Shown here one piece after another: positions 146 to 9,734 of a stretch of 10,330 nt of DNA. This stretch comes from Planctomycetota bacterium (GTDB taxonomy: Bacteria; Planctomycetota; SZUA-567; H5-PLA8): positions 1-10,330 of the forward strand of contig JBBRPR010000121.1 of the NCBI GenBank assembly GCA_038227875.1, in the 5' to 3' direction. The translations under genes were made by a program, and so were the position numbers. The notes beneath the pieces were generated by a model, which was not told the origin of the DNA, did no database searches, and saw only the letters and a program-made list of their open reading frames with translations. The number at the start of each line of letters is the position of its first letter. Position 1 is the stretch's first letter.

Positions 146-1783
146 GTGAGCAAGAAAAGTAAGACCGCCGCGAGCATGCCAAAAAAGCCGGAACACAAGC
201 CGCCCAAAGTGAAAATCCGCCTGCTGCCGACCGGCGTGCGCGGCCTGGATGAAATCCTGGACGGCGGGCTGCCGGAATTCTCCTTCAACATCATCGCCGG
301 CGCTCCGGGTTGCGGCAAGACCACGCTGGTGCATCAGATCATCTTCGCCAACGCGACCCCGCAGAAACCCGCGCTTTATTTCACCGTGCTGGGCGAACCC
401 GCCATCAAGATGCTGCGTTACCAGCAGCAATATACCTTCTTCGATCCGGCCATGCTGGGCAAGGCCATCCGCTTTATCAACCTGAGCGACGTGCTGTTGG
501 AGAAGGATTTGGATGGAGTACTGGAGAAAATTATCAAGGATGTGCAGGCGATCAAACCCAGCTTGGTCGTGGTGGACTCCTTCCGCACCGTGGTGCGCAA
601 AGCGATGGCCAGCAGCGGCGATACGAAACTGCAAGCCTTCATCCAGCGGCTGGCACTGTTCCTGACCAGTTGGGAAGCCACCACGTTTTTGATCGGGGAA
701 TATACCGAGGGGGAACTGCGCGACAATCCCGTCTTCACCGTGGCCGACGGTCTATTCTGGCTGACCCAGAATACACAGCGAAATTCCGTGGTGCGAAAAT
801 TGCAAATCATGAAGCTGCGCGGGCAGGACTCGGTGCCGGGATTGCACACCGTCCGCATCAACGATGACGGGTTGCAAGCCTTCTCGCGCACTCTGGGTCT
901 GGCGGGCCCGAAAAAAGATAGACCACTCAATCCGCGGCGTCTTTCCACCGGTATTTCGGAACTGGATAAGATGATGAACGGGGGCATTCTGGAAGGCGAC
1001 AGCGTGCTGATCTCAGGCCCTTCGGGCACGGGAAAATCGGCGCTGGCCACCCAATTTCTCGCCGATGGCCTGCGCCACGGAGAAGCAGGCATCGCGGCGA
1101 TCTTCGAGGAACGCCCTCGCGGCTACGTGGCCCGGGCCAGGAATTTTGGCCTGGACTTTGAGACGCCGCAAAAAAACGGCATGCTCGAAATACTTTACCT
1201 GCGTCCGCTGGATCTCTCGGTGGATGAGACGATGCAGGAAATCCTCGATGCGGTGAAAAGGCTCAACGCCAAGCGGCTGGTGATCGATTCGCTGGTGGGC
1301 TTTGAGATGGCGCTGGCCCCCGATTTCCGCGACGACTTTCGTGAGTCGCTCTACCGCATGGTCGCGGCGCTGACCGGAGCGGGGGTGACGATCTGCACCA
1401 CGGTCGAGATCGAGGACACCTTTACCGCGATGCAGTTCAGTCACTACGCGATTTCGTTTCTGACCGATGACATTATCCGGCTGCGTTATGTGGAGATTGA
1501 CGGCCAGTTGCGCAAAGTCTTGGCGGTGATCAAAATGCGCGGCGGCAACCACAGCAAGGATCTCCGCGAATATGTGATCAACGACTCAGGCATGACCGTG
1601 ATCGGCCCGCGCCAGACGGATTACGCGCGCCTGATCAGCGGGCTGCCGGATCGCATCGGCCTGGTGCCGCCCGAGCTGCCGCCGGAGCCGAAAGAGAGAT
1701 TTAACCCGGATCTGGGATGGAACCCGGAGCCGAAAGGGAACCCGAAGCCGAACTTGAAACCGGCGCCGAAAAAGAAACGGTAA
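146..1783 (+). CDS. kaiC: KaiC-like (RAD55/KaiC family) tandem-domain ATPase
   Basis: Two RecA-type domains. Walker A: GAPGCGKT and GPSGTGKS. Walker B: VVVDS and LVIDS. Domain starts PTGVRGLDEIL and STGISELDKMM; arginine-finger motifs MKLRG and IKMRG. SD GGGAG shortly before GTG 146 (alternative ATG at 176). KaiC-like, not necessarily a clock protein. Confidence 0.9.
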   Translation: MSKKSKTAASMPKKPEHKPPKVKIRLLPTGVRGLDEILDGGLPEFSFNIIAGAPGCGKTTLVHQIIFANATPQKPALYFTVLGEPAIKMLRYQQQYTFFDPAMLGKAIRFINLSDVLLEKDLDGVLEKIIKDVQAIKPSLVVVDSFRTVVRKAMASSGDTKLQAFIQRLALFLTSWEATTFLIGEYTEGELRDNPVFTVADGLFWLTQNTQRNSVVRKLQIMKLRGQDSVPGLHTVRINDDGLQAFSRTLGLAGPKKDRPLNPRRLSTGISELDKMMNGGILEGDSVLISGPSGTGKSALATQFLADGLRHGEAGIAAIFEERPRGYVARARNFGLDFETPQKNGMLEILYLRPLDLSVDETMQEILDAVKRLNAKRLVIDSLVGFEMALAPDFRDDFRESLYRMVAALTGAGVTICTTVEIEDTFTAMQFSHYAISFLTDDIIRLRYVEIDGQLRKVLAVIKMRGGNHSKDLREYVINDSGMTVIGPRQTDYARLISGLPDRIGLVPPELPPEPKERFNPDLGWNPEPKGNPKPNLKPAPKKKR

Positions 1784-1797
1784 CGCGGGCACCGTGC

Positions 1798-1883
1798 CGT
1801 GCCGTTCCTTGCCCCAAAGGGGCAATGTAACAAAGTTACGGTGTTCGTGCCGTGCCTTGCCCCAAAGGGGCAATGTAACAAAG
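1798..1883. repeat. Direct repeat, two 38-bp copies (1798-1835 and 1846-1883), each with a TTGCCCC-AAA-GGGGCAA hairpin
   Basis: cgtgccgt(t/g)ccttgccccaaaggggcaatgtaacaaag, 37/38 identical, 48-bp period. Confidence 0.95.
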
Positions 1884-1954
1884 CCCAGGGTTGCGCCCGC
1901 AGGCGCTACCCTGGGTAACGAAACGCCAGATGCGAAACAACCCCGAAGGGGTTG
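1857..1954. repeat. REP-like three-hairpin intergenic element
   Basis: Hairpins TTGCCCC-aaa-GGGGCAA (1857-1873), CCCAGGGT-t-GCGCC-cgca-GGCGC-t-ACCCTGGG (1884-1915) and CAACCCC-gaa-GGGGTTG (1938-1954). The layout resembles palindromic repeats associated with Y1/RAYT-type transposases (inference). Confidence 0.7.
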
Positions 1955-1990
1955 CGGCGGGACGGCGACGAACGGAAGATGAACGGAGCT

Positions 1991-2151
1991 TTATGGATAC
2001 AGAACGCACACCCGGCAATAAAGATCCCGCGCCGGAACCAAAGATTTCAATAAAAATAATTCCAACCGGAATTATGCCATGCAGCCGGCACTTGGAGTAA
2101 GTGGTTATGGATACAGAACGCGCACCCGGCAATAAAGACACCGCGCCGGAA
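1991..2151 (+). repeat. 47-bp direct repeat (1991-2037 and 2105-2151) duplicating the start of the kinase gene
   Basis: ttatggatacagaacgc(a/g)cacccggcaataaaga(tc/ca)ccgcgccggaa, 44/47 identical, offset 114 bp (in frame). Both copies are preceded by GGAG. Confidence 0.95.
1993..2100 (+). pseudogene. 35-aa mini-ORF, probable 5' remnant of a kaiC-like paralog
   Basis: MDTERTPGNKDPAPEPKISIKIIPTGIMPCSRHLE*. PKISIKIIPTGI aligns with PKVKIRLLPTGV at the N-terminus of the upstream KaiC-like protein. GGAG at 1985-1988. Confidence 0.55.
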
Positions 2152-3798
2152 ATTCGAAGTTACTCCGCGCCGATCATCGAGCGCGCGCCGCTGCCCATCG
2201 TCGAGGTGCAGGGGAATAACCACATCGTTTCATTTGTGAATTCAGCTTTTTGCAAACTGATGGGGAAAACCAGGGCGGAATTGATCGCCAAGCCCTTCGC
2301 CGACATCGTGCCGGGCGGTGGCCACTGCGTTCCGATCCTGGATAAAGTTTACGAAACCGGCGAGGCCGTCACTCATGCGCGTGAGGACGATTCCGAACCC
2401 AGCCCTGCGTACTGGCTGTATGCGATGTGGCCGGCGCTGGATGCGGATGAACGCCCGGCGGGCGTGATCATCCAATTGACCAAGGCGGTCGAATTTCGGC
2501 AGAACGTCGCGGCAATGAACCAGGCCTTGCTGCTTGCCGGGTTGCGCCAGCATGAATCCCTTGAAGCGCTTCAGAAGATGACTGCCGAACTGGAAGCGGA
2601 AATCATCGAACGCAAACGCGTCGAGGAAGCATTGCGCGACAGCGCGCAGCGCCTGGCGGAGACGGATCGCCAGAAGGATGTCTTCATGGCGATCCTGGCG
2701 CATGAACTGCGCAATCCCCTCGCGCCGATCAAAAGCTCGGCGCAGATCTTGCGCCTGGCCAATATCGACAACCCCACGGTGATCCGGGCGCAGGCGGTGA
2801 TCGAGCGCCAGGCCAACCATATGGCGCGGCTGGTTGACGACCTGCTGGATGTTTCACGCCTGCAGAATGGCAAGGTGCGGCTGCAGAAAGAAGCCGTGAA
2901 TCTGGCCGATGCGGTCGCCAATGCCCTTGAGACCTGCAATCATCTCATTTCTTCACGCCATCATCAGGTGATCTTGAACGTGCAGAACGAGCCGCCGGTC
3001 TTTGTCGATGCCGACCCCGCCCGGCTGGAGCAGATCGTCGCCAACATCGTCGGCAACGCCGCCAAATACACGCCGTCTCACGGCAGGATTGAAGTGATCG
3101 CCGCCGCGGAAGAAGACGATGCCGTCCTGCGCGTGAAAGACAACGGCGCCGGCATCGAAGCCAGCATGCTGGGCCGGATTTTCAACGTGTACACGCAGGT
3201 CGAGCAGTCGCTGGACCGCAGCCAGGGCGGGCTGGGCCTGGGACTGAAGCTGGTCAAGGAGCTTGTTCAACTGCACGGCGGATCGGTGGAAGTGAAAAGC
3301 GAAGGGCTGGGGATGGGCAGCGAATTCATCGTCAGGTTGCCACGCTTGCAGAAAGCGTTTTCCAGCGTGCGCGCGGCGAAGATGATACCGGGCAAGAGCA
3401 CGGTCAACCGCAAGGTTCTGGTCGTCGAAGACAGCACCGACATCCTCGACACGATGCAAATGCTGCTGACGATGAACGGCCACACGGTTGAACAGGCCGT
3501 GGATGGACCCGAAGGAATCGCCAAGGCGTTCTTGACCGCCCCCGACGTGGCGTTGATCGACATCGGACTGCCGATCCTGAATGGCTACGAAGTCGCGCGC
3601 GAAATCCGCTCCAAGCCCGGTGGCGACAAGATCGTGCTGGTCGCGCTGAGCGGCTATGGCCAGGGCGAAGACAAGCGCGCCGCGGCCGAAGCCGGCTTCG
3701 ACCACCATCTGACAAAACCCGTCGACGCGGAAGAATTGATCTTGTTATTAAACGATCTGGAACGGTTCGTCCTGCGCAAAAAGTTCGTTTCAGCGTAA
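2107..3798 (+). CDS. Hybrid sensor histidine kinase (PAS-HisKA-HATPase_c-REC)
   Basis: PAS-like N-terminus (IVSFVNSAFCKLMG), H-box LAHELRNPLAPI, N-box NIVGNAAKYT, G1 VKDNGAGI, G2 GGLGLGL, receiver VLVVEDS...LIDIGLP...LTKP. ATG 2107 is preferred over GTG 2101 because SD GGAG (2094-2097) is 9 nt from the ATG. Confidence 0.95.
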   Translation: MDTERAPGNKDTAPEIRSYSAPIIERAPLPIVEVQGNNHIVSFVNSAFCKLMGKTRAELIAKPFADIVPGGGHCVPILDKVYETGEAVTHAREDDSEPSPAYWLYAMWPALDADERPAGVIIQLTKAVEFRQNVAAMNQALLLAGLRQHESLEALQKMTAELEAEIIERKRVEEALRDSAQRLAETDRQKDVFMAILAHELRNPLAPIKSSAQILRLANIDNPTVIRAQAVIERQANHMARLVDDLLDVSRLQNGKVRLQKEAVNLADAVANALETCNHLISSRHHQVILNVQNEPPVFVDADPARLEQIVANIVGNAAKYTPSHGRIEVIAAAEEDDAVLRVKDNGAGIEASMLGRIFNVYTQVEQSLDRSQGGLGLGLKLVKELVQLHGGSVEVKSEGLGMGSEFIVRLPRLQKAFSSVRAAKMIPGKSTVNRKVLVVEDSTDILDTMQMLLTMNGHTVEQAVDGPEGIAKAFLTAPDVALIDIGLPILNGYEVAREIRSKPGGDKIVLVALSGYGQGEDKRAAAEAGFDHHLTKPVDAEELILLLNDLERFVLRKKFVSA

Positions 3799-3861
3799 AC
3801 GGTTGGCAGTGTAGCGGCCTGCTTCCGAAATCCTGTTGATCGGCGCGTTGAAAAGCCGGCT
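3790..3861 (-). pseudogene. Short remnant of a paralog of the adjacent DDE transposase
   Basis: 3814-3861 encodes SRLFNAPINRISEAGR versus SRLFSAPINRISEAGR at 4857-4904: 15/16 aa identical and 37/48 nt identical, with 8 synonymous changes. Confidence 0.8.
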
Positions 3862-4025
3862 GGTGTCGCGGCCCGACAGACTGTGAGACGGAGAATGGAA
3901 GTCGAAAACGCAGGATATGAATTTTGCACGCAGTGCATGAGGAAGATGAGGACGGAGTATCTCTGCGCGGAGGAAACGAAGAGAGAAAAAGTTTTCAAAG
4001 AGCCGGGCTCTGAAACAGAATTCGC

Positions 4026-5306
4026 TCACGCCACGAGTTCGACGGAATCGACGATTTGGATGGACAGAGTTGGCAAATGGAAATCGCCGTGGAAATGAAT
4101 GCGTTGAACATTGATCGCCGGCTTGATTGCGCTGCGTTCGAGCATCGGCTTCGGGTGCGGCAGCACGACGCCGGACCAGACTTCTTCCGGGGTTCGGCCG
4201 CCGTGCAGCCACATCGGTCGTTGGATGTTGTACCAATCGCGGAAGATGTCGAGTTTGCGTTGAATCCAGTCCTTCTTGCGCGCGAAAAGCGTGAGCCGCT
4301 GCCAGAGTTTGAAGGTCCTGAAGAACCGCTCGACCTTTCCGTTGAACTGCTTGGAACGATCCTTCATGCCTTTGACGACTTCGATCTTGAGCGGATTCTT
4401 CTTGAGAGCGCGCTTGAATTTGCCCCGGAACTGGCAGCCATGATCGGTGACCATGAAGCGCGGCGCGCCGAACGACTTCGCGCAGGCCTTGACGAGAGCA
4501 ACCATGTTGCGCGTGGCCGGCGCATCCTTGTAGACTTTGAGGGCCAGCAACTTGCGCGAGAAGCCATCGACAACGGCGGCGACGTAAAAGCGAACGAGAA
4601 TCAAGTCGATGGTGGTGAGGTCAAGGTGCCAGGTTTGGTTGATCCGCTCAGGTCGCAAGATGTGATGAGGCGGAACATCCGTCACGGCAGATTCCTTTTT
4701 TGCAGGCGCGTTCGGCTGCTGGGGCTTCATTTCACGGAGAATGCGCTGGACGGACGAGCGACTGATCTGGCGGCCCATTCGGACGATTTGCATGGCAATG
4801 GTCCGCGTGCCGAAGTCTTTTTCGGGGCACAGTTCTCGAATCTGGTGCACCATCCAACGCCCGGCTTCAGAAATCCTATTGATTGGCGCAGAAAAGAGCC
4901 GGCTCCCTTTCCCGCTCGTGTTCATTTCTTTGATCCAGCCGCGAAGCGTATTGGGATGCACGACGAAACGGACCGCCGTCGTTTCAATGCTCCAGCGGCG
5001 CAAGCGCATGAGTTGAACGATTTCAAAGCGGGCTTCTGGCAAATAGTGCGGCCTGTGTTGCGGCGTATGGCTTTCGATGCGCCCACGCAGAATATCGGCT
5101 TCGCGCTTCGACAATGCCGCGTCCCAGGCGTGCTCATCCCGATCGGCGAAACTGCGTACAATAGGCGAACCACTCGCCGCCGCGCGGGAGCGAACCAACA
5201 TCAGCACGGCGGTCAGGCTGCAAGCGATGGTGTCCAACGTCCGAAGAACGGATGCGGGCCAGGTGGACGGATTGTTGACGCGGACTCCGGAGTCAGGCTT
5301 TGCCAT
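4026..5306 (-). CDS. DDE transposase / integrase core (rve) protein, IS481/IS3-like
   Basis: Catalytic triad contexts QTWHLD, VTDHGCQF and NGKVERFFRTFK; C-terminal WYNIQRP...GGRTPEEVW; N-terminal HTH-like segments (TAVRFVVHPNTLRGW, ISRSSVQRIL). No convincing terminal inverted repeats were found. Confidence 0.9.
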   Translation of the reverse strand: MAKPDSGVRVNNPSTWPASVLRTLDTIACSLTAVLMLVRSRAAASGSPIVRSFADRDEHAWDAALSKREADILRGRIESHTPQHRPHYLPEARFEIVQLMRLRRWSIETTAVRFVVHPNTLRGWIKEMNTSGKGSRLFSAPINRISEAGRWMVHQIRELCPEKDFGTRTIAMQIVRMGRQISRSSVQRILREMKPQQPNAPAKKESAVTDVPPHHILRPERINQTWHLDLTTIDLILVRFYVAAVVDGFSRKLLALKVYKDAPATRNMVALVKACAKSFGAPRFMVTDHGCQFRGKFKRALKKNPLKIEVVKGMKDRSKQFNGKVERFFRTFKLWQRLTLFARKKDWIQRKLDIFRDWYNIQRPMWLHGGRTPEEVWSGVVLPHPKPMLERSAIKPAINVQRIHFHGDFHLPTLSIQIVDSVELVA

Positions 5307-5434
5307 GGAGAACGAAGTTCCTTTTCAATAGTGAAGGTCGGCCATCGTATGTACCTGGCGACTGGCCGCAAGGCGGCGTGAGAGTTCTTTGATTCTTAAA
5401 TAAGCGCGGGCACGGAATCTCGCCTGAAATCGCA

Positions 5435-5463
5435 TTGACTGAAATACGTCAATGGCGTATAGT
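5435..5463 (+). promoter_or_regulatory. Sigma70 promoter of the TA operon with overlapping operator palindromes
   Basis: TTGACT (5435-5440), 17-nt spacer, TATAGT (5458-5463). Palindromes ATACGtCA-a-TGgCGTAT (5444-5460) and CATTGAC-N8-GTCAATG (5433-5454). Confidence 0.85.
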
Positions 5464-5489
5464 CCATTCCAGGATGGGGTTCCAGAGAA

Positions 5490-5813
5490 ATGTCGGACGT
5501 TATACTTGTCGACACACCGGTGTTCTTTGAGGAGATTCATCAATATATCGACTCAAACGACCTCTGGAGTCTGCAAGAGGCATTGATACGGAATCCCGAG
5601 AAGGGCGCGATCGTCAAGGGGAGCGGAGGAATCCGAAAGATGCGCTGGCCATTGCCCGGCAAAGGCAAGAGCGGTGGGCTGCGGATCATTTACCATTGGG
5701 ATTCCACCGACCGGCGGCTGTTCTTTCTGTTTTGCTATCCGAAGTCCAAGCAAGGCGATCTGACTCCGAAGCAGATCAAGGCATTGAGAGAGACTTTGGA
5801 AGCAGACGAATAG
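5490..5813 (+). CDS. higB: Type II toxin, RelE/HigB-2 family
   Basis: Motif NPEKGAIVKGSGGIRKMRW...GKGKSGGLRIIY...YPKSKQGDLT; toxin-first gene order. Confidence 0.88.
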   Translation: MSDVILVDTPVFFEEIHQYIDSNDLWSLQEALIRNPEKGAIVKGSGGIRKMRWPLPGKGKSGGLRIIYHWDSTDRRLFFLFCYPKSKQGDLTPKQIKALRETLEADE

Positions 5814-5825
5814 GAGCTAACTCCG

Positions 5826-6125
5826 ATGAAGAAGAACGACTTCGACAAGCTGCTCCTCAGCGTGCGGCAAATGAAGCAAATCAAGAAGGGCTCGCTTAAG
5901 CCGGCGCGAGAGATCCGTGTTTCTGTTCCAAATGCCAAGCAGATTCGTGAGAAGCTGCACATGTCGCAGACGGAGTTTGCCACGTTGATTCATGTAAGCG
6001 TGGACACGATACAGAACTGGGAGCAGGGGCGCCGTATACCTGACGGGCCTGCCAGGGCACTTTTGCAGGTGGTCGAGAAATGTCCCGAGCAGGTACTTGA
6101 GGCTTTGCATGCAGCAACTCATTGA
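5826..6125 (+). CDS. higA: XRE-family HTH antitoxin (HigA-2/NadS-like)
   Basis: IREKLHMSQTEFATLIHVSVDTIQNWEQGRRIPDGPARALL; SD AGGAG at 5812-5816. Confidence 0.88.
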   Translation: MKKNDFDKLLLSVRQMKQIKKGSLKPAREIRVSVPNAKQIREKLHMSQTEFATLIHVSVDTIQNWEQGRRIPDGPARALLQVVEKCPEQVLEALHAATH

Positions 6126-6155
6126 ACAAATCGCGACGCGACAGGTCGCGCCATT

Positions 6156-6177
6156 CTGTGCCTACGCTGTGCCTACG
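6156..6177. repeat. Tandem 11-bp direct repeat, putative integrase arm-type sites (left arm)
   Basis: CTGTGCCTACG twice, perfect, about 150 bp left of the tRNA fragment. Confidence 0.75.
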
Positions 6178-6254
6178 AGTGGTCTCATTAGGGCGCGATT
6201 TGGCGCGTCCTGTCGCGAAGGCGGATTTTCGGCGGTTCTTCCAACCTCAAAATC

Positions 6255-6290
6255 TGACGTGAGTTGACGCTTGTTGACGCATCCTGTCGC
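6255..6290. repeat. Four TG(A/T)CG motifs at exact 10-bp period, putative Xis/RDF binding sites
   Basis: TGACG at 6255, 6265 and 6275, TGTCG at 6285; located between the left arm repeat and the att core. Confidence 0.65.
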
Positions 6291-6324
6291 TTAAACGCGA
6301 AAATGGCGAAATCGCGGGGGTTCT

Positions 6325-6368
6325 GCTTCCCAAGCCGAAGGTCGCGGGTTCGATGCCCGTCGCCCGCT
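6325..6368 (+). other. att core: 3' half of tRNA-Gly(CCC), not a complete tRNA
   Basis: Anticodon loop TTCCCAA (6327-6333), T-arm GCGGG-TTCGATG-CCCGT (6344-6360), acceptor 3' strand CGCCCGC (6361-6367), discriminator T. No D-arm upstream, and the 5' anticodon stem strand is mismatched. Confidence 0.9.
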
Positions 6369-6439
6369 TCAGTTTTTTCAGTCGATAACACCATGGCGTC
6401 ACAAGCCTTTACGTCAACGGCTTCCGCCCCCACTGCAAC

Positions 6440-6461
6440 CCGTTGCATACCCGCTGCATAC
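6440..6461. repeat. Tandem 11-bp direct repeat, putative integrase arm-type sites (right arm)
   Basis: CCGTTGCATAC CCGCTGCATAC; shares the TGCnTAC core and 11-bp period with 6156-6177. Confidence 0.7.
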
Positions 6462-6850
6462 TTTTCATCGAAAATGACCCGTGCGCCCACGGCTTCGGCG
6501 GTTGCGGCCAGTCGGTGCTTGCCCACGTGGGAATAGACATTCATCGTGATCTTCGGGTCCATGTGACGCAGCAACGTCTGTGCTTCCTTGACATTCGCGC
6601 CCGATTCAATCAGCAATGAACAGTACGTGTGCCGAAGACCGTGAAAGACAAGTGTTCCACCCGGCGCGATTTCTGGAATGCCCGCGGCGTCATAGTCACG
6701 GAAAAAAAGCCGATCGATGTGCTTGTCCACTGTCAGCAGTGGCGCGGCGGCGGGCTTGCCTTCGCTGGCGGTCTTCAACTTCGCGGCCAGCGCGGCCGGA
6801 ATCGGTTGTTGTGAATCCCTTCGGCCTTTCGAGTACTTCGCGGCAAGTTT

Positions 6851-6870
6851 CAGCGTGCAGCGTGCAGCGT
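6851..6870. repeat. 7-bp tandem repeat (CAGCGTG x2 + CAGCGT) at the integrase frameshift
   Basis: cagcgtg cagcgtg cagcgt read directly from the sequence. Confidence 0.95.
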
Positions 6871-7545
6871 TCGGCGTCCAGATCCGCCACGGTCAACGCG
6901 GCCAGTTCGCCCTTTCGGTACCCCGTGCACAACGCCGTTTCGTACAGCAGGCGCCGGGCGGGCGGCGCAACGTCCAGCAGCTTACCGATTTCCTTTTCAG
7001 TCATGGCGCGCCGGACAGTCTTCGGCGTCACGTCCAGCGGCGCAAAGCCTTCAAGTGGATTGCTGGCGAGATACCCGCGCCCTTTCGCCCACAAGCACAA
7101 AGCCTTGAGACTTTCAACATGCGTGTAGGTCGTCTTCCCACTCTTGCCGGCCGTCAAAAGTTCACGCGCCACGGCTTCGACCTTCGGCAGTGTAACGTCC
7201 ACCAGCGTCGTAAGGTTCAATCGTTTCGGCCAGAATTCAGTTAGGTGACGTGTTCTCGTTTCGACGTGCGTGGAACTCCACGGGCGCCCGCCATGCCCGC
7301 CTTGCGCGGTTCCCCATGCGATGTATTCAGCGGCCATGTCCGTGAATGGGCGCGCCTTGTCGCTGGCCTTCGGCGGGGGAATATGCCCTTGGCGAATTAG
7401 ACGGTCGTGGTGTTCCTTCGATTCGGCTGTCTGCCGGACTTCCTTTTCCTTCGCGTCACTGACGGGAAGGAAACGCTGTTTGCCTTGCCAGTCGATATAC
7501 CAGCCTCGAAACTTCCCGCTCGCAAGTTTCACGACTCCGGCCATG

Positions 7546-7764
7546 TCATTCACCCTTTCCCATTGCGTCTCGGCGCGGCTTGGCGATCCACGGACCCAAG
7601 CCCATGCCTTCCGCCTGAGAGGCTTTCGTCCACGCGGTTTTCTCGCTGGCCGATATTCGAATCAGAACAGGAATCTGCCGCGTCTCCGGTCCCGACGGCG
7701 GGCGTCCGGTGCGCTTCTTGTCCGCTGCAATTTCGGCGCGTGTGCGTTTCACTTTTTTAGCCAT
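7546..7764 (-). CDS. Small DNA-binding protein, probable ribbon-helix-helix regulator with a GRPP motif
   Basis: KRTGRPPSG followed by the alternating strand IPVLIRIS and two helices (ASEKTAWTKASQAEG, GLGPWIAK); stop lies 1 nt before the int ATG. Confidence 0.7.
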   Translation of the reverse strand: MAKKVKRTRAEIAADKKRTGRPPSGPETRQIPVLIRISASEKTAWTKASQAEGMGLGPWIAKPRRDAMGKGE

Positions 7765-7771
7765 GCCTCAC

Positions 7772-7801
7772 TATGTACCATTTGCGTATATCAGAAGTCA
7801 A
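7772..7801 (-). promoter_or_regulatory. Putative promoter for the RHH-int transcript, possibly leaderless
   Basis: Minus strand TTGACT (7801-7796), 18-nt spacer, TGn-TACATA (7777-7772), with ATG 7 nt further on. The -10 is imperfect. An imperfect inverted repeat overlaps it. Confidence 0.45.
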
Positions 7802-8103
7802 GACCGTAGGCGCGCAAATTTTCGCGCTTCGGCCTCAAGTCGTGCTTCGTGATGGCGAACAATGGCGCCCGCCGTCCACGTGTTCTTGCCCATCAGGCGC
7901 GCCGGGCGGGGCAATTCTCCCCGATCCACGGCGGCTTTGATGCTGGCCGTGCACTTCCCGAAAATCGTCGCTAAGCCTTCCTCGGTCACCAGCGCGCCGG
8001 GCGGGAGGGCACCGATGGAAGAAAAGACGCCGGGCATTGACGTCGCTGATAATGCGGTCACAACCGGCGGAGTGGGTGTTGCAGTATCGTTGTTCTCGGT
8101 CAT
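7798..8103 (-). CDS. AlpA/excisionase-like HTH protein (recombination directionality factor)
   Basis: LVTEEGLATIFGKCTASIKAAVDRGELPRPARLMGKNTW matches the AlpA/Xis winged-HTH pattern; located upstream of int. Confidence 0.8.
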   Translation of the reverse strand: MTENNDTATPTPPVVTALSATSMPGVFSSIGALPPGALVTEEGLATIFGKCTASIKAAVDRGELPRPARLMGKNTWTAGAIVRHHEARLEAEARKFARLRS

Positions 8104-9734
8104 GACGTGACGCTCCCTTGGGATTTTGTCTTTCGGCGTGGGTGGGTGTCAGAGTGAGAGTTTCCCCTTAAAGTTTCCTTTAAGGGAAAAACACTCTCAC
8201 ACTCCCCCCCTGTTACCTTGGGTTGAAGGTCGAGCTTAGGTTGAGGAATTGTTGCGAAACTGGGCGGCTTGTTTCCGCCATTACTCCAGCGGAAAGCTTG
8301 GCCAGTGGCCTCTGCCTTCTCTAAGAATTTCACTGCCTTGTAGTCTGTCAGGCCTTTTTCGTTTGCGTCGGCGAGTATTGCGCCCTTCAGTTTTGGACTT
8401 TGACTGATAAGCGCAGCGACGAAGCTTGTCGTGGTCCATTCGACTTTTGCTGGCTCCGTAGGTGTCGAAGAAACTTCAGGTTTCTTCGCTTTAGCGTTTG
8501 CCCTTTTGAACTCCGTCGGATCCAAGTCGGGCGCCGGCGTCCACAGCGGGAATTCAAAGCGAAGGCACCTTGAAAGCACGGGCGGCCAGCTGCGCGGCGC
8601 GGCGTCGAGCACCACCGCCGCTTCTTCGGAGTGTGGGCGCAGGATCACATGACAATCCGCGGCGCGGGAGATTGCCCCGGCCCCGGCGCCTACGTCGGTG
8701 ACGGCGCGGCCGGACTGCAAGCCTTTGCTCGTGTGGTGAATCAGCACGAAGGCACAGTGTAACTTTTCCGCATAGGCGTCGATTTGATTGTAGAGACCCG
8801 CCATGCTTCCATTGTCGTTTTCGTCGGTGTCTTTCGGTAAGAACCGATAGAAGGCATCCAGCACAATGACGCTGAAGTACCCCGGCTCCAGCGCGTTTAA
8901 CATGGGCCCCAGGGTGAATATGTCCTTCAAATTTCCGCGCAATAGCTCGTACGCAATTTTGTTTTCATATCGATCACGCGCGATACCCTTTGCTTCCGCA
9001 ACCCGTGGCAATCGGTTGCCGATCGTTTCGGCGTGCAACTCGTTGTCTAATATCAGCACCCGCCCCGGCGCCACATCGAAGCCAAGCCATTTCAGACCCG
9101 TCGCCACGCTCAAAGCAAAATCCAGTGTTAGCCAGGTCTTGCCCGTCTTCGGCGGCGCGATGACGTTCATCGTCTCGCCTTCGCGAAGTAGACCGTGGAC
9201 TAGCGGCCGCCGTAAGCATGTGTATTTGTCAATGAGCGACCCCACAAAATGATAGGGCGGCGTCGAAGTAGCGCGTTGCACGGCGGTCACTGCTTTCAAC
9301 GCGTCCACCGCGGCGCCGTCTTCACCTTTTTGCAGCAAGGTGCTTGCGCTGACGAGTGCCTCGGCAAGTTGGCGGCGACGCGTGTACTGTTTGAGCGTGG
9401 AAATCTCGGTTTCAATGTTTGCGCCGCTGTGCAAGCCGGCATCATGATACAGGTTCCCAATGAAGCGCTTCCCGCCCACAGATTCAAGATTTCCGGCGCG
9501 TTCCATTTCCGCCACGATGGAAATTTCATCTCCCAAGTTGAGTCTGGCGAGATGACAGGTGCGGAAGGCAATGAACGCAGCGCGGTACATCGGACTGTAA
9601 AAGTCCGATTCGAGCAATTCCTCGAACGCAATTCCTGCACACCTCGAGTCCGCAAGGCATGAAAGAATCGGACTGCGTTCGGCATCCTGTGAGTACAGTC
9701 GGGCGATAGGCCGGCCAGCGTTCAAGTTACACAC
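8100..9734 (-). CDS. Replicative helicase: DnaB-like N-terminal domain plus AAA_25/RepA(RSF1010)-type ATPase
   Basis: N-terminal SQDAERSPILSCL...LESDFYSPMYRAAF...LESVGG resembles DnaB_N. Walker A APPKTGKT, RVLILDNE, Walker B IVLDAFY, LIHHTSKG, GAGAISRAAD. Start codon uncertain (no SD seen); possibly 5'-truncated. Confidence 0.85.
   Translation of the reverse strand: MCNLNAGRPIARLYSQDAERSPILSCLADSRCAGIAFEELLESDFYSPMYRAAFIAFRTCHLARLNLGDEISIVAEMERAGNLESVGGKRFIGNLYHDAGLHSGANIETEISTLKQYTRRRQLAEALVSASTLLQKGEDGAAVDALKAVTAVQRATSTPPYHFVGSLIDKYTCLRRPLVHGLLREGETMNVIAPPKTGKTWLTLDFALSVATGLKWLGFDVAPGRVLILDNELHAETIGNRLPRVAEAKGIARDRYENKIAYELLRGNLKDIFTLGPMLNALEPGYFSVIVLDAFYRFLPKDTDENDNGSMAGLYNQIDAYAEKLHCAFVLIHHTSKGLQSGRAVTDVGAGAGAISRAADCHVILRPHSEEAAVVLDAAPRSWPPVLSRCLRFEFPLWTPAPDLDPTEFKRANAKAKKPEVSSTPTEPAKVEWTTTSFVAALISQSPKLKGAILADANEKGLTDYKAVKFLEKAEATGQAFRWSNGGNKPPSFATIPQPKLDLQPKVTGGECESVFPLKETLRGNSHSDTHPRRKTKSQGSVTS
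8154..8200. repeat. Long imperfect inverted repeat inside the helicase 3' end, candidate replication origin
   Basis: GTGAGAG-TTT-c-CCCTTAAAG-tttc-CTTTAAGGG-a-AAA-aca-CTCTCAC. Confidence 0.7.

Follow-up and report, generated by a model that had tools for sequence, protein, structure and literature searches.

A probable relic of an attP-type junction at a tRNA-Gly(CCC) fragment, crossed by an integrase gene, in a Planctomycetota contig

The contig JBBRPR010000121.1 of a Planctomycetota bacterium, analysed here over its entire 10,330 bp (hereafter the window), carries a fragment of a tRNA-Gly(CCC) gene that has 11-bp tandem repeats on both sides and lies at the end of a gene for a tyrosine integrase (Int, gene int). 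The region 6138-6461 is best read as an attP-type junction, that is, an attachment site in which one arm, the core and the other arm still stand in a row. The most rational explanation of the whole, to which we give a probability of roughly 65%, is that the region was the recombination site of a small integrative element in a Planctomycetota-like host, that it is in the un-recombined arrangement, that int reads across it, and that the copy is a relic. A preliminary description of the same DNA had called the region an attP-like junction. The arm-core-arm layout stands as the best reading, but it is doubtful that the site is the working attP of a live circle, since int is frameshifted, a peptide conserved in the family is missing and the end of the int frame is unique. 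New in relation to that description is that int overlaps the site, that the overlap is a family trait and that the copy is defective.

The tRNA fragment constitutes the core of the site (Table 1). It is made up of the anticodon stem UCUGC/GCCGA with one mismatch, the loop UUCCCAA (TTCCCAA in the DNA at 6327-6333) with the glycine anticodon CCC, the variable region, the T arm, the 3' strand of the acceptor stem and a U as discriminator, after which TCA stands instead of CCA. To let a 5'-truncated match score, we confined a search to 6322-6375, and 6322-6368 then matched positions 26-71 of the 71 positions of the Rfam model RF00005 with 21.2 bits (E=0.0069), which falls under the gathering score of 29, as expected of a partial tRNA. 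The complete cloverleaf of a functional tRNA gene is not formed here. An Rfam scan of the whole window at E≤10 gave no tRNA match, and a 101-nt slice gave just a weak match to tRNA-Sec. The view that only the 3' half of the gene is present was already that of the preliminary description, which had suggested looking for an intact tRNA and for further copies of the core, and had named a complete tRNA called by a scan as fatal to its reading; ARAGORN reports no tRNA gene over the window, and neither the 5' half of the tRNA nor a second copy of the core block is found anywhere in it. A tRNA-Gly(CCC)-like gene of a Microvirga megaplasmid matches 6317-6371 at 85.5%. Such a gene at L082 280-355 (Microvirga sp. 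VF16 plasmid pMVF16-2) has an odd D region and is labelled tRNA-Leu(cag) by ARAGORN; it is absent from the gene table of the plasmid, but that table omits RNA genes.

The int frame is uninterrupted from the catalytic tyrosine codon across the core to 6188. The core sits about 60 codons past the tyrosine, and the last approximately 115 codons consist of the right arm, the antisense of the tRNA copy and 45 codons beyond the core. In this frame the right-hand repeats read KYAAGMQRVAVG and the tRNA copy reads EAGDGHRTRDLRLGK. As the int tail overlaps the site, one arm and the core are at the same time int coding sequence. The placing of int on the 3' side of the fragment in the preliminary description is thus right as to the side, but the gene overlaps the fragment rather than merely adjoining it, and it is split into two frames; in the same way the right-hand repeats are real, but they are not intergenic.

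What marks the junction is the point at which similarity to other integrases ends. The similarity of the int tail to the homologue P0002 (77% identical overall) ends at LGK and that to P0007 two codons later, and the alignments to P0002, P0007 and P0005 all end at LGK or LGKQN, codons that are antisense to 6320-6334, i.e. the anticodon loop and its 5' edge. Past the core, the tail has no homology to P0007, P0005, P0006, P0004 or P0002. That homology stops at the anticodon loop argues for an attP-type junction, and because the sequence past the core is not the 5' half of a tRNA, an ordinary integrated junction does not fit. Strand exchange may well have taken place in this interval.

The repeats on the two sides of the core are genuine. 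Tandem Repeats Finder (TRF) reported the right array with period 11, 3.1 copies and 82%, and the left array with period 11, 2 copies and 100%; the period of 11 occurs in only two of the 12 TRF arrays of the window, and these two flank the fragment. The left core GTAGGCA, present twice, resembles the right GTATGCA and has the same orientation. TGCNTAC occurs nine times against 2.12 expected (at least nine in 0 of 200 shuffles) and GTAKGCA four times, always on the minus strand (6159, 6170, 6444 and 6455), against 0.84 expected (at least four in 0 of 200 shuffles), figures that are optimistic in that both patterns were derived from the data. TRF and the motif counts agree with the preliminary description, which had pointed to repeats of 11-bp period with a shared TGCnTAC on both sides. 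Three matches to GCGACAGGNNGCGNCA stand on the left side, against 0.01 expected (at least three in 0 of 200 shuffles), and TTGACGC is found twice within 6264-6280. The int tails of six Verrucomicrobiota loci (L005, L008, L013, L018, L020 and L023) are in their last 60-90 codons dense in short DNA repeats, for example CCTCACAA pairs and TGTCRCAAC, and the left arm of the window holds the related CCTGTCGC three times; the likeness may reflect an arm-site vocabulary common to the family.

The right arm is, judging from the homologues, constrained at the level of the DNA and not only of the protein. In 23 homologues and the window, the residues eight and four positions before AVGAE are either Y, H or N together with M (10 sequences, nine homologues and the window) or C, R or S together with V (14 sequences), and none of the 24 sequences has a mixed pair. 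As groups these residue sets make no chemical sense, and an underlying DNA repeat would account for them: they correspond to xAT-GCA...ATG-CA and xGT-GCA...GTG-CA, which is the direct repeat RTGCA with 11-bp spacing, read in two phases. The pair has switched jointly at least four times on a Biopython neighbour-joining tree of the catalytic parts, which carries no support values. The covariation is read from amino acids, and the DNA motif itself is confirmed in the window and in one related locus, L001.

Int has 62 homologues, the best 77% identical, which come mostly from metagenome-assembled genomes of Planctomycetota. Most are full length, up to 496 aa, and some are shorter fragments. After the catalytic tyrosine they share the tail ..EKYAxGMQRVAVGAEAVDVKACD.., and in several of them AGEGVRTLDFDLGK or another peptide of the antisense-tRNA type, e.g. 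GFEP or WRRRESNPRP, comes next. A profile scan of genomes with an alignment of 12 sequences gave 80 related loci, the source genome of the window not being among them. At 28 of the 80 the strand opposite int holds an intact tRNA no more than 600 nt past the int match, so that int converges on the 3' end of the tRNA, and at 22 of these 28 the int open reading frame (ORF) enters the tRNA by 3-92 nt; at seven of the 80 the tRNA is on the same strand instead. The int of the window has the orientation of these integrated relatives (28/80). An int gene that overlaps its tRNA site is a trait of the family.

Six of the relatives (L008, L013, L018, L021, L023 and L030) could be bounded by a second copy of the last 25-28 nt of the tRNA, which lies 4.6-8.1 kb upstream at the far end of the element. 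In them the P and P' arms share tandem motifs of the same orientation, e.g. GCCTCACAAATAGCCTCACAG and CCCTCACAAGGAGCCTCACAG, and it is the corresponding likeness in the window, a left pair that resembles the right one in the same orientation, that speaks for the arm-core-arm reading. When the reading phase of int is carried over the core at the far junction, the frame is open for about 60-75 codons in 6/6, a count that stands for only two lineages, one at tRNA-Asp and one at tRNA-Val, and it ends with ..VVxAWxxLPxxLKAAILAIV.. followed by a stop, while the two other frames hold stops in 6/6. The open frame across the core and the conserved far peptide suggest that in the circular form of these elements int would extend across the site, and that integration would replace the C-terminus of Int.

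A peptide related to the LKAAILAIV type ends the long Planctomycetota proteins P0005, P0013 and P0007. The far C-terminal match of P0005 to P0013 (E=1.75e-5) is the sole significant pair and P0007 joins solely through the profile alignment; a motif common to all long-tailed homologues was therefore dropped as a candidate. In four of the 14 homologues of alignment A1 (P0005, P0007, P0013 and P0015) the tail is long and gives no tRNA reading, and relatives in the circular form seem to be common. The closest relative for which the DNA is at hand, L001 (63% identical), has no tRNA, its int ORF passes unbroken through an antisense half of tRNA-Gly(GCC), i.e. across the core, and phage- or plasmid-like genes lie on either side.

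Two further loci deserve a remark of their own. At L002 11100-11200 (int 61% identical) the int tail is followed by the last approximately 21 nt of a sense tRNA-Gly(GCC)-like gene and then by the host genes ThuA and LarA. The tRNA piece is inverted relative to that of L001, the join lies in the palindromic T-loop GTTCGAAC, and this suggests recombination in reverse orientation. In L013, on a 672-kb contig, the bounding direct repeat (3397-3480 and 10844-10927) is about 83 nt and not 27, with 56 nt of int-side P'-like arm DNA beside the displaced core copy. Upstream of the repeat we found no second integrase; the repeat itself looks like the scar of an earlier element.

The window copy itself is best seen as a defective relic. 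A 7-bp duplication shifts the int frame, and the conserved C-terminal peptide is missing to the left of the core. The DNA at the frameshift reads GAACGCTGCACGCTGCACGCTGAAAC; both frames carry RCTL, and each aligns with the homologues solely on its own side of the shift. The run of 7-bp units at 6851-6881 is a slippage-prone spot.

If the site once worked as its layout suggests, Int would have bound the two stem halves TCTGC and GCCGA of the core, and strand exchange would have occurred in the 7-nt anticodon loop of the tRNA gene of the host, which the copy carried by the element would have restored upon integration. The 11-bp tandem units, GTATGCA on the right and GTAGGCA on the left in the same orientation, are likely arm-type sites, and an accessory factor is the likely ligand of the three GCGACAGG..GCG.CA sites. 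As int crosses the site, integration would in this family also swap the C-terminus of Int, as it does in phage Mx8. We infer from the sequence both that the left flank is a true arm and which protein would bind which repeat.

Table 1. Features of the window, with positions counted from its first nucleotide
Feature	Position	Strand	Basis
tRNA-Gly(CCC) copy from anticodon stem to discriminator base, attachment-site core	6322-6368	+	Rfam, 5'-truncated
Homology break at 5' edge of anticodon loop, presumed strand-exchange region	6320-6333		int-tail alignments
Right (P') arm, three 11-bp units GTATGCAGCGG, GTATGCAACGG, GTTGCAGTGGG	6429-6461	-	TRF, GTAKGCA scan, codon covariation
Left arm, perfect tandem pair CTGTGCCTACG (minus strand CGTAGGCACAG), candidate pair of arm-type sites	6156-6177	-	TRF
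GCGACAGGNNGCGNCA, three copies, candidate accessory-factor sites	6138-6153, 6201-6216, 6275-6290	+, -, -	motif scan, inverted pair I25, direct family D9
Tyrosine integrase gene in two frames (N-terminal 6696-7544, C-terminal 6188-6892)	6188-7544	-	Pfam Phage_integrase in both parts
Frameshift site, 7-bp unit ACGCTGC/CGCTGCA one time too many	6851-6881	-	sequence; TRF period 7, 4.4 copies
Terminator-like hairpin after the int frame stop codon (6188-6190), facing the end of the antitoxin gene	6134-6153	-	consensus scan only
Two small ORFs upstream of int	7546-7767, 7798-8103	-	no Pfam, NCBIfam or PHROG match
Primase/helicase-like replication protein of the element (DnaB-N and AAA_25)	8100-9734	-	Pfam; phrog_2597 DNA primase 4.5e-34; NCBIfam phage_DnaB weak
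Toxin-antitoxin pair abutting the left arm: promoter-like site 5435-5463, RelE-like toxin 5490-5813, NadS/MqsA-type helix-turn-helix (HTH) antitoxin 5826-6125	5435-6125	+	Pfam RelE 6.7e-9, HTH_3; NadS 2.6e-18; phrog_5869, phrog_2104; promoter scan
IS481/IS3-like insertion sequence (IS), transposase 4026-5306	4012-5395	-	rve domains; transpos_IS481 3.2e-34
KaiC-like double ATPase (146-1783) and PAS hybrid histidine kinase/response regulator (2101-3798)	146-3798	+	Pfam, NCBIfam

On the int side the replication gene belongs to the element, and in L003 the place of the two small ORFs is occupied by an HTH_17 protein. To the left of the site lie the toxin-antitoxin pair, the IS and the genes for the KaiC-like protein and the kinase, all of which could be cargo of one and the same replicon; the last two may be either cargo or host genes. 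The terminal inverted repeats of the IS are imperfect (21 nt, inverted pair I3, 71% complementary), and 47 nt just outside it (3815-3861) are 79% identical to 4858-4904 within the transposase gene. Two pairs of direct repeats (1798-1883 and 1991-2151) stand between the KaiC-like gene and the kinase gene, one of 38 nt with 97% identity and a GCCCCAAAGGGGC hairpin in each copy, and the other of 47 nt with 94%, whose second copy covers the start of the kinase gene. The 3' end of the KaiC-like gene holds an 18-bp tandem repeat in about three copies (1719-1778), which encodes a repeated PEPKE-type tail.

Several observations weigh against the reading of the region as an un-recombined site. The left flank should, if it is an arm of the int family, encode the conserved C-terminal peptide, and a profile of that peptide run against the window in all frames gave no match, the ORF in the int frame scoring -1.0 and ranking 316 of 1221; without the peptide the left flank is not a typical arm of the family. 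In a set of 5.8 billion proteins the tail beyond the core matched only the ORF of the window itself. Its 45 open codons are in themselves unremarkable, as 41% of random positions in the window have at least as many stop-free codons. The left and right repeat units agree at 7 of 11 positions, and the optimism of the motif counts, the lack of support values on the tree and the reading of the covariation from amino acids belong on the same side of the balance. The KaiC-like and kinase genes and the IS look chromosomal, or like part of a large island, and not like a small episome. Finally, the stretch GCGGGGG (6314-6320), which adjoins the anticodon stem, would be able to form six out of seven pairs with the 3' strand of the acceptor stem, which hints at a deleted D arm with host DNA to the left. 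The claim in the preliminary description that both sides look like element thus holds in part: DNA of the element lies on the int side, the tRNA does not go on leftward and the left 11-bp pair resembles the right one, but the left flank lacks the family peptide and the tail is unique in the database.

Given an attP-type junction, two histories predict the same local sequence, and the odds between them are about even. By the first, which we regard as a serious though tentative possibility, two islands are stacked in one tRNA gene: an older element on the right, with int and the helicase gene, would have entered tRNA-Gly(CCC), and a second one on the left, which ends with the toxin-antitoxin pair and the left arm, would have entered the regenerated tRNA or the displaced fragment, so that one would expect a second int and the intact tRNA outside the contig, beyond its left end. 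An int that has decayed beside the junction is what one would expect of a displaced older element, a left flank without the family peptide fits a different partner element, and the IS and the chromosome-like cargo are in keeping with an island. There is also a precedent in the family, the 56 nt of arm DNA beside the displaced core and the 83-nt repeat of L013, and 125 tandem arrays are catalogued among 3919 islands in the available part of PMC4383910. In the window, however, int and the core each occur once and no intact tRNA is present, and the partner poses a dilemma: if it is unrelated, the resemblance of the repeat pairs is due to chance, and if it is related, its arm should encode the peptide.

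The second history, which we regard as a nearly equal possibility, is that of a free or plasmid-like circle, in which the window is part of an excised and replicating element, with 6138-6461 as the working attP and the toxin-antitoxin pair, the IS and the KaiC-kinase genes as cargo. The layout with a fragment only recurs in the closest relatives, e.g. in L001, where the int ORF is unbroken and the genes on either side are of mobile type, and the non-tRNA tails of P0005, P0007, P0013 and P0015 point the same way. The element has a primase/helicase-like gene of its own, and a toxin-antitoxin pair adjoining the site would suit a plasmid-like lifestyle. On the other hand, the ends of the contig show no overlap, and KaiC-kinase cargo would be unusual for a small circle. 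The whole window had no DNA match among known plasmids; when 5400-6480 was compared at the DNA level, only the antitoxin HTH stretch and the tRNA core matched plasmids and nothing matched phages, and protein searches of plasmids and phages with P0002 gave distant integrases only. The frameshifted int, the missing peptide and the unique tail count against a circle as well.

An ordinary integrated junction, with host DNA on the left and a tRNA from which a deletion or rearrangement, perhaps linked to the IS 900 bp away, removed the D arm or the 5' half, or as a variant entry at a secondary site, is improbable despite the possible acceptor pairing and the chromosomal look of the KaiC and kinase genes, as no tRNA 5' half is present in the window and a left array of period 11 with GTAGGCA in the same orientation at most 175 nt from the core would be unlikely in random host DNA (10^-3 to 10^-2 by a rough post hoc estimate). 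The mini-tRNA without a D arm that such a deletion would leave was rejected as a candidate, since its fold has z = -0.25, with 67 of 200 shuffles folding as well or better, and the promoter scan gave no promoter-like site upstream.

In textbooks, an integrase gene whose frame runs through its own attachment site is a rarity, with phage Mx8 as the case in bacteria and the SSV type as the case in archaea. The target of Mx8 is a tRNA-Asp gene, and its IntP becomes IntX. In the available part of PMC6070905, attP of Mx8 lies within int, whose 3' end is replaced when the phage integrates, and the enzyme is not destroyed by this. The attP of Mx8 lies in the 3' part of int, after the catalytic domain, and similarly the int frame of 6/6 bounded relatives crosses the core into a peptide that integration would detach, so that a replacement of the C-terminus of the Mx8 type is probable for them. 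In the window the frame crosses the core as well and is conserved among the homologues as far as the loop, but the conserved peptide is absent. There is no specific kinship: BLASTP of Mx8 Int with P0002 gave E=0.006 over 77 residues only, and Mx8 is not among the 15 phage matches listed out of 28. Mx8 is moreover a phage of 49.5 kb, whereas the relatives described here are small elements with a primase/helicase gene in another host phylum.

According to the available part of PMC4383910, the integrases of both Mx8 and SSV extend across attP, and sites centred on the anticodon are common. The same part describes an Islander class A in which attP contains the part of the tRNA between the anticodon region and the 3' end, restores the gene, is about 250 bp long and has int adjacent. 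The site in the window is similar: it encloses the anticodon loop within about 325 bp (6138-6461) and has a tRNA fragment that reaches the 3' end and an adjacent integrase gene in the right orientation, albeit frameshifted; it differs in that one arm and the core are int coding sequence, and more distant relatives use a T-loop sublocation with repeats of 25-28 nt. Candidate arm repeats stand on both sides, the right ones conserved in the family and the left ones a single case and a candidate that agrees at 7 of 11 positions. At an internal junction of a tandem island array, a tRNA fragment stands between two stretches of island DNA (available part of PMC4383910), and the window has the same look, but the definition of an array needs an integrase and a fragment for each island plus an intact tRNA, and here one int and one fragment are seen. 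In the SSV type the recombination site lies within the integrase frame and the gene is cut into two inactive halves, an arrangement that the available part of PMC7253208 gives as so far restricted to archaea. The translation of the site within the integrase frame is shared with the window, but the core stands here downstream of the catalytic tyrosine, and only the tail changes, so that the integrase is not of the suicidal kind. The site is thus a defective example of an already known kind of attachment site.

The arrangement in the relatives suggests that an int which spans its own site is a regular feature of a bacterial group that is large and has been little studied. It is a speculative thought, and one that may well turn out wrong, that in widespread integrases of Planctomycetota and Verrucomicrobiota the circular-form Int would end in a conserved helix encoded past the core, which integration would detach to the far end of the element and replace by a short antisense-tRNA tail. 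This would be a built-in switch of activity or direction without a separate excisionase, a bacterial counterpart of Mx8 and SSV, and the window would then hold a dead copy. A literature search found no description of such a family arrangement, which is weak evidence that it is unpublished.

For the contig, the finding marks the start of a mobile element, and one that is no longer able to move on its own. In the right arm, arm sites and codons place two constraints on the same DNA. Software for finding islands must allow for tRNA fragments inside int genes, and in annotation a long integrase and a short one may represent the same gene in its two states. The finding also bears on the mining of integrases with known target sites.

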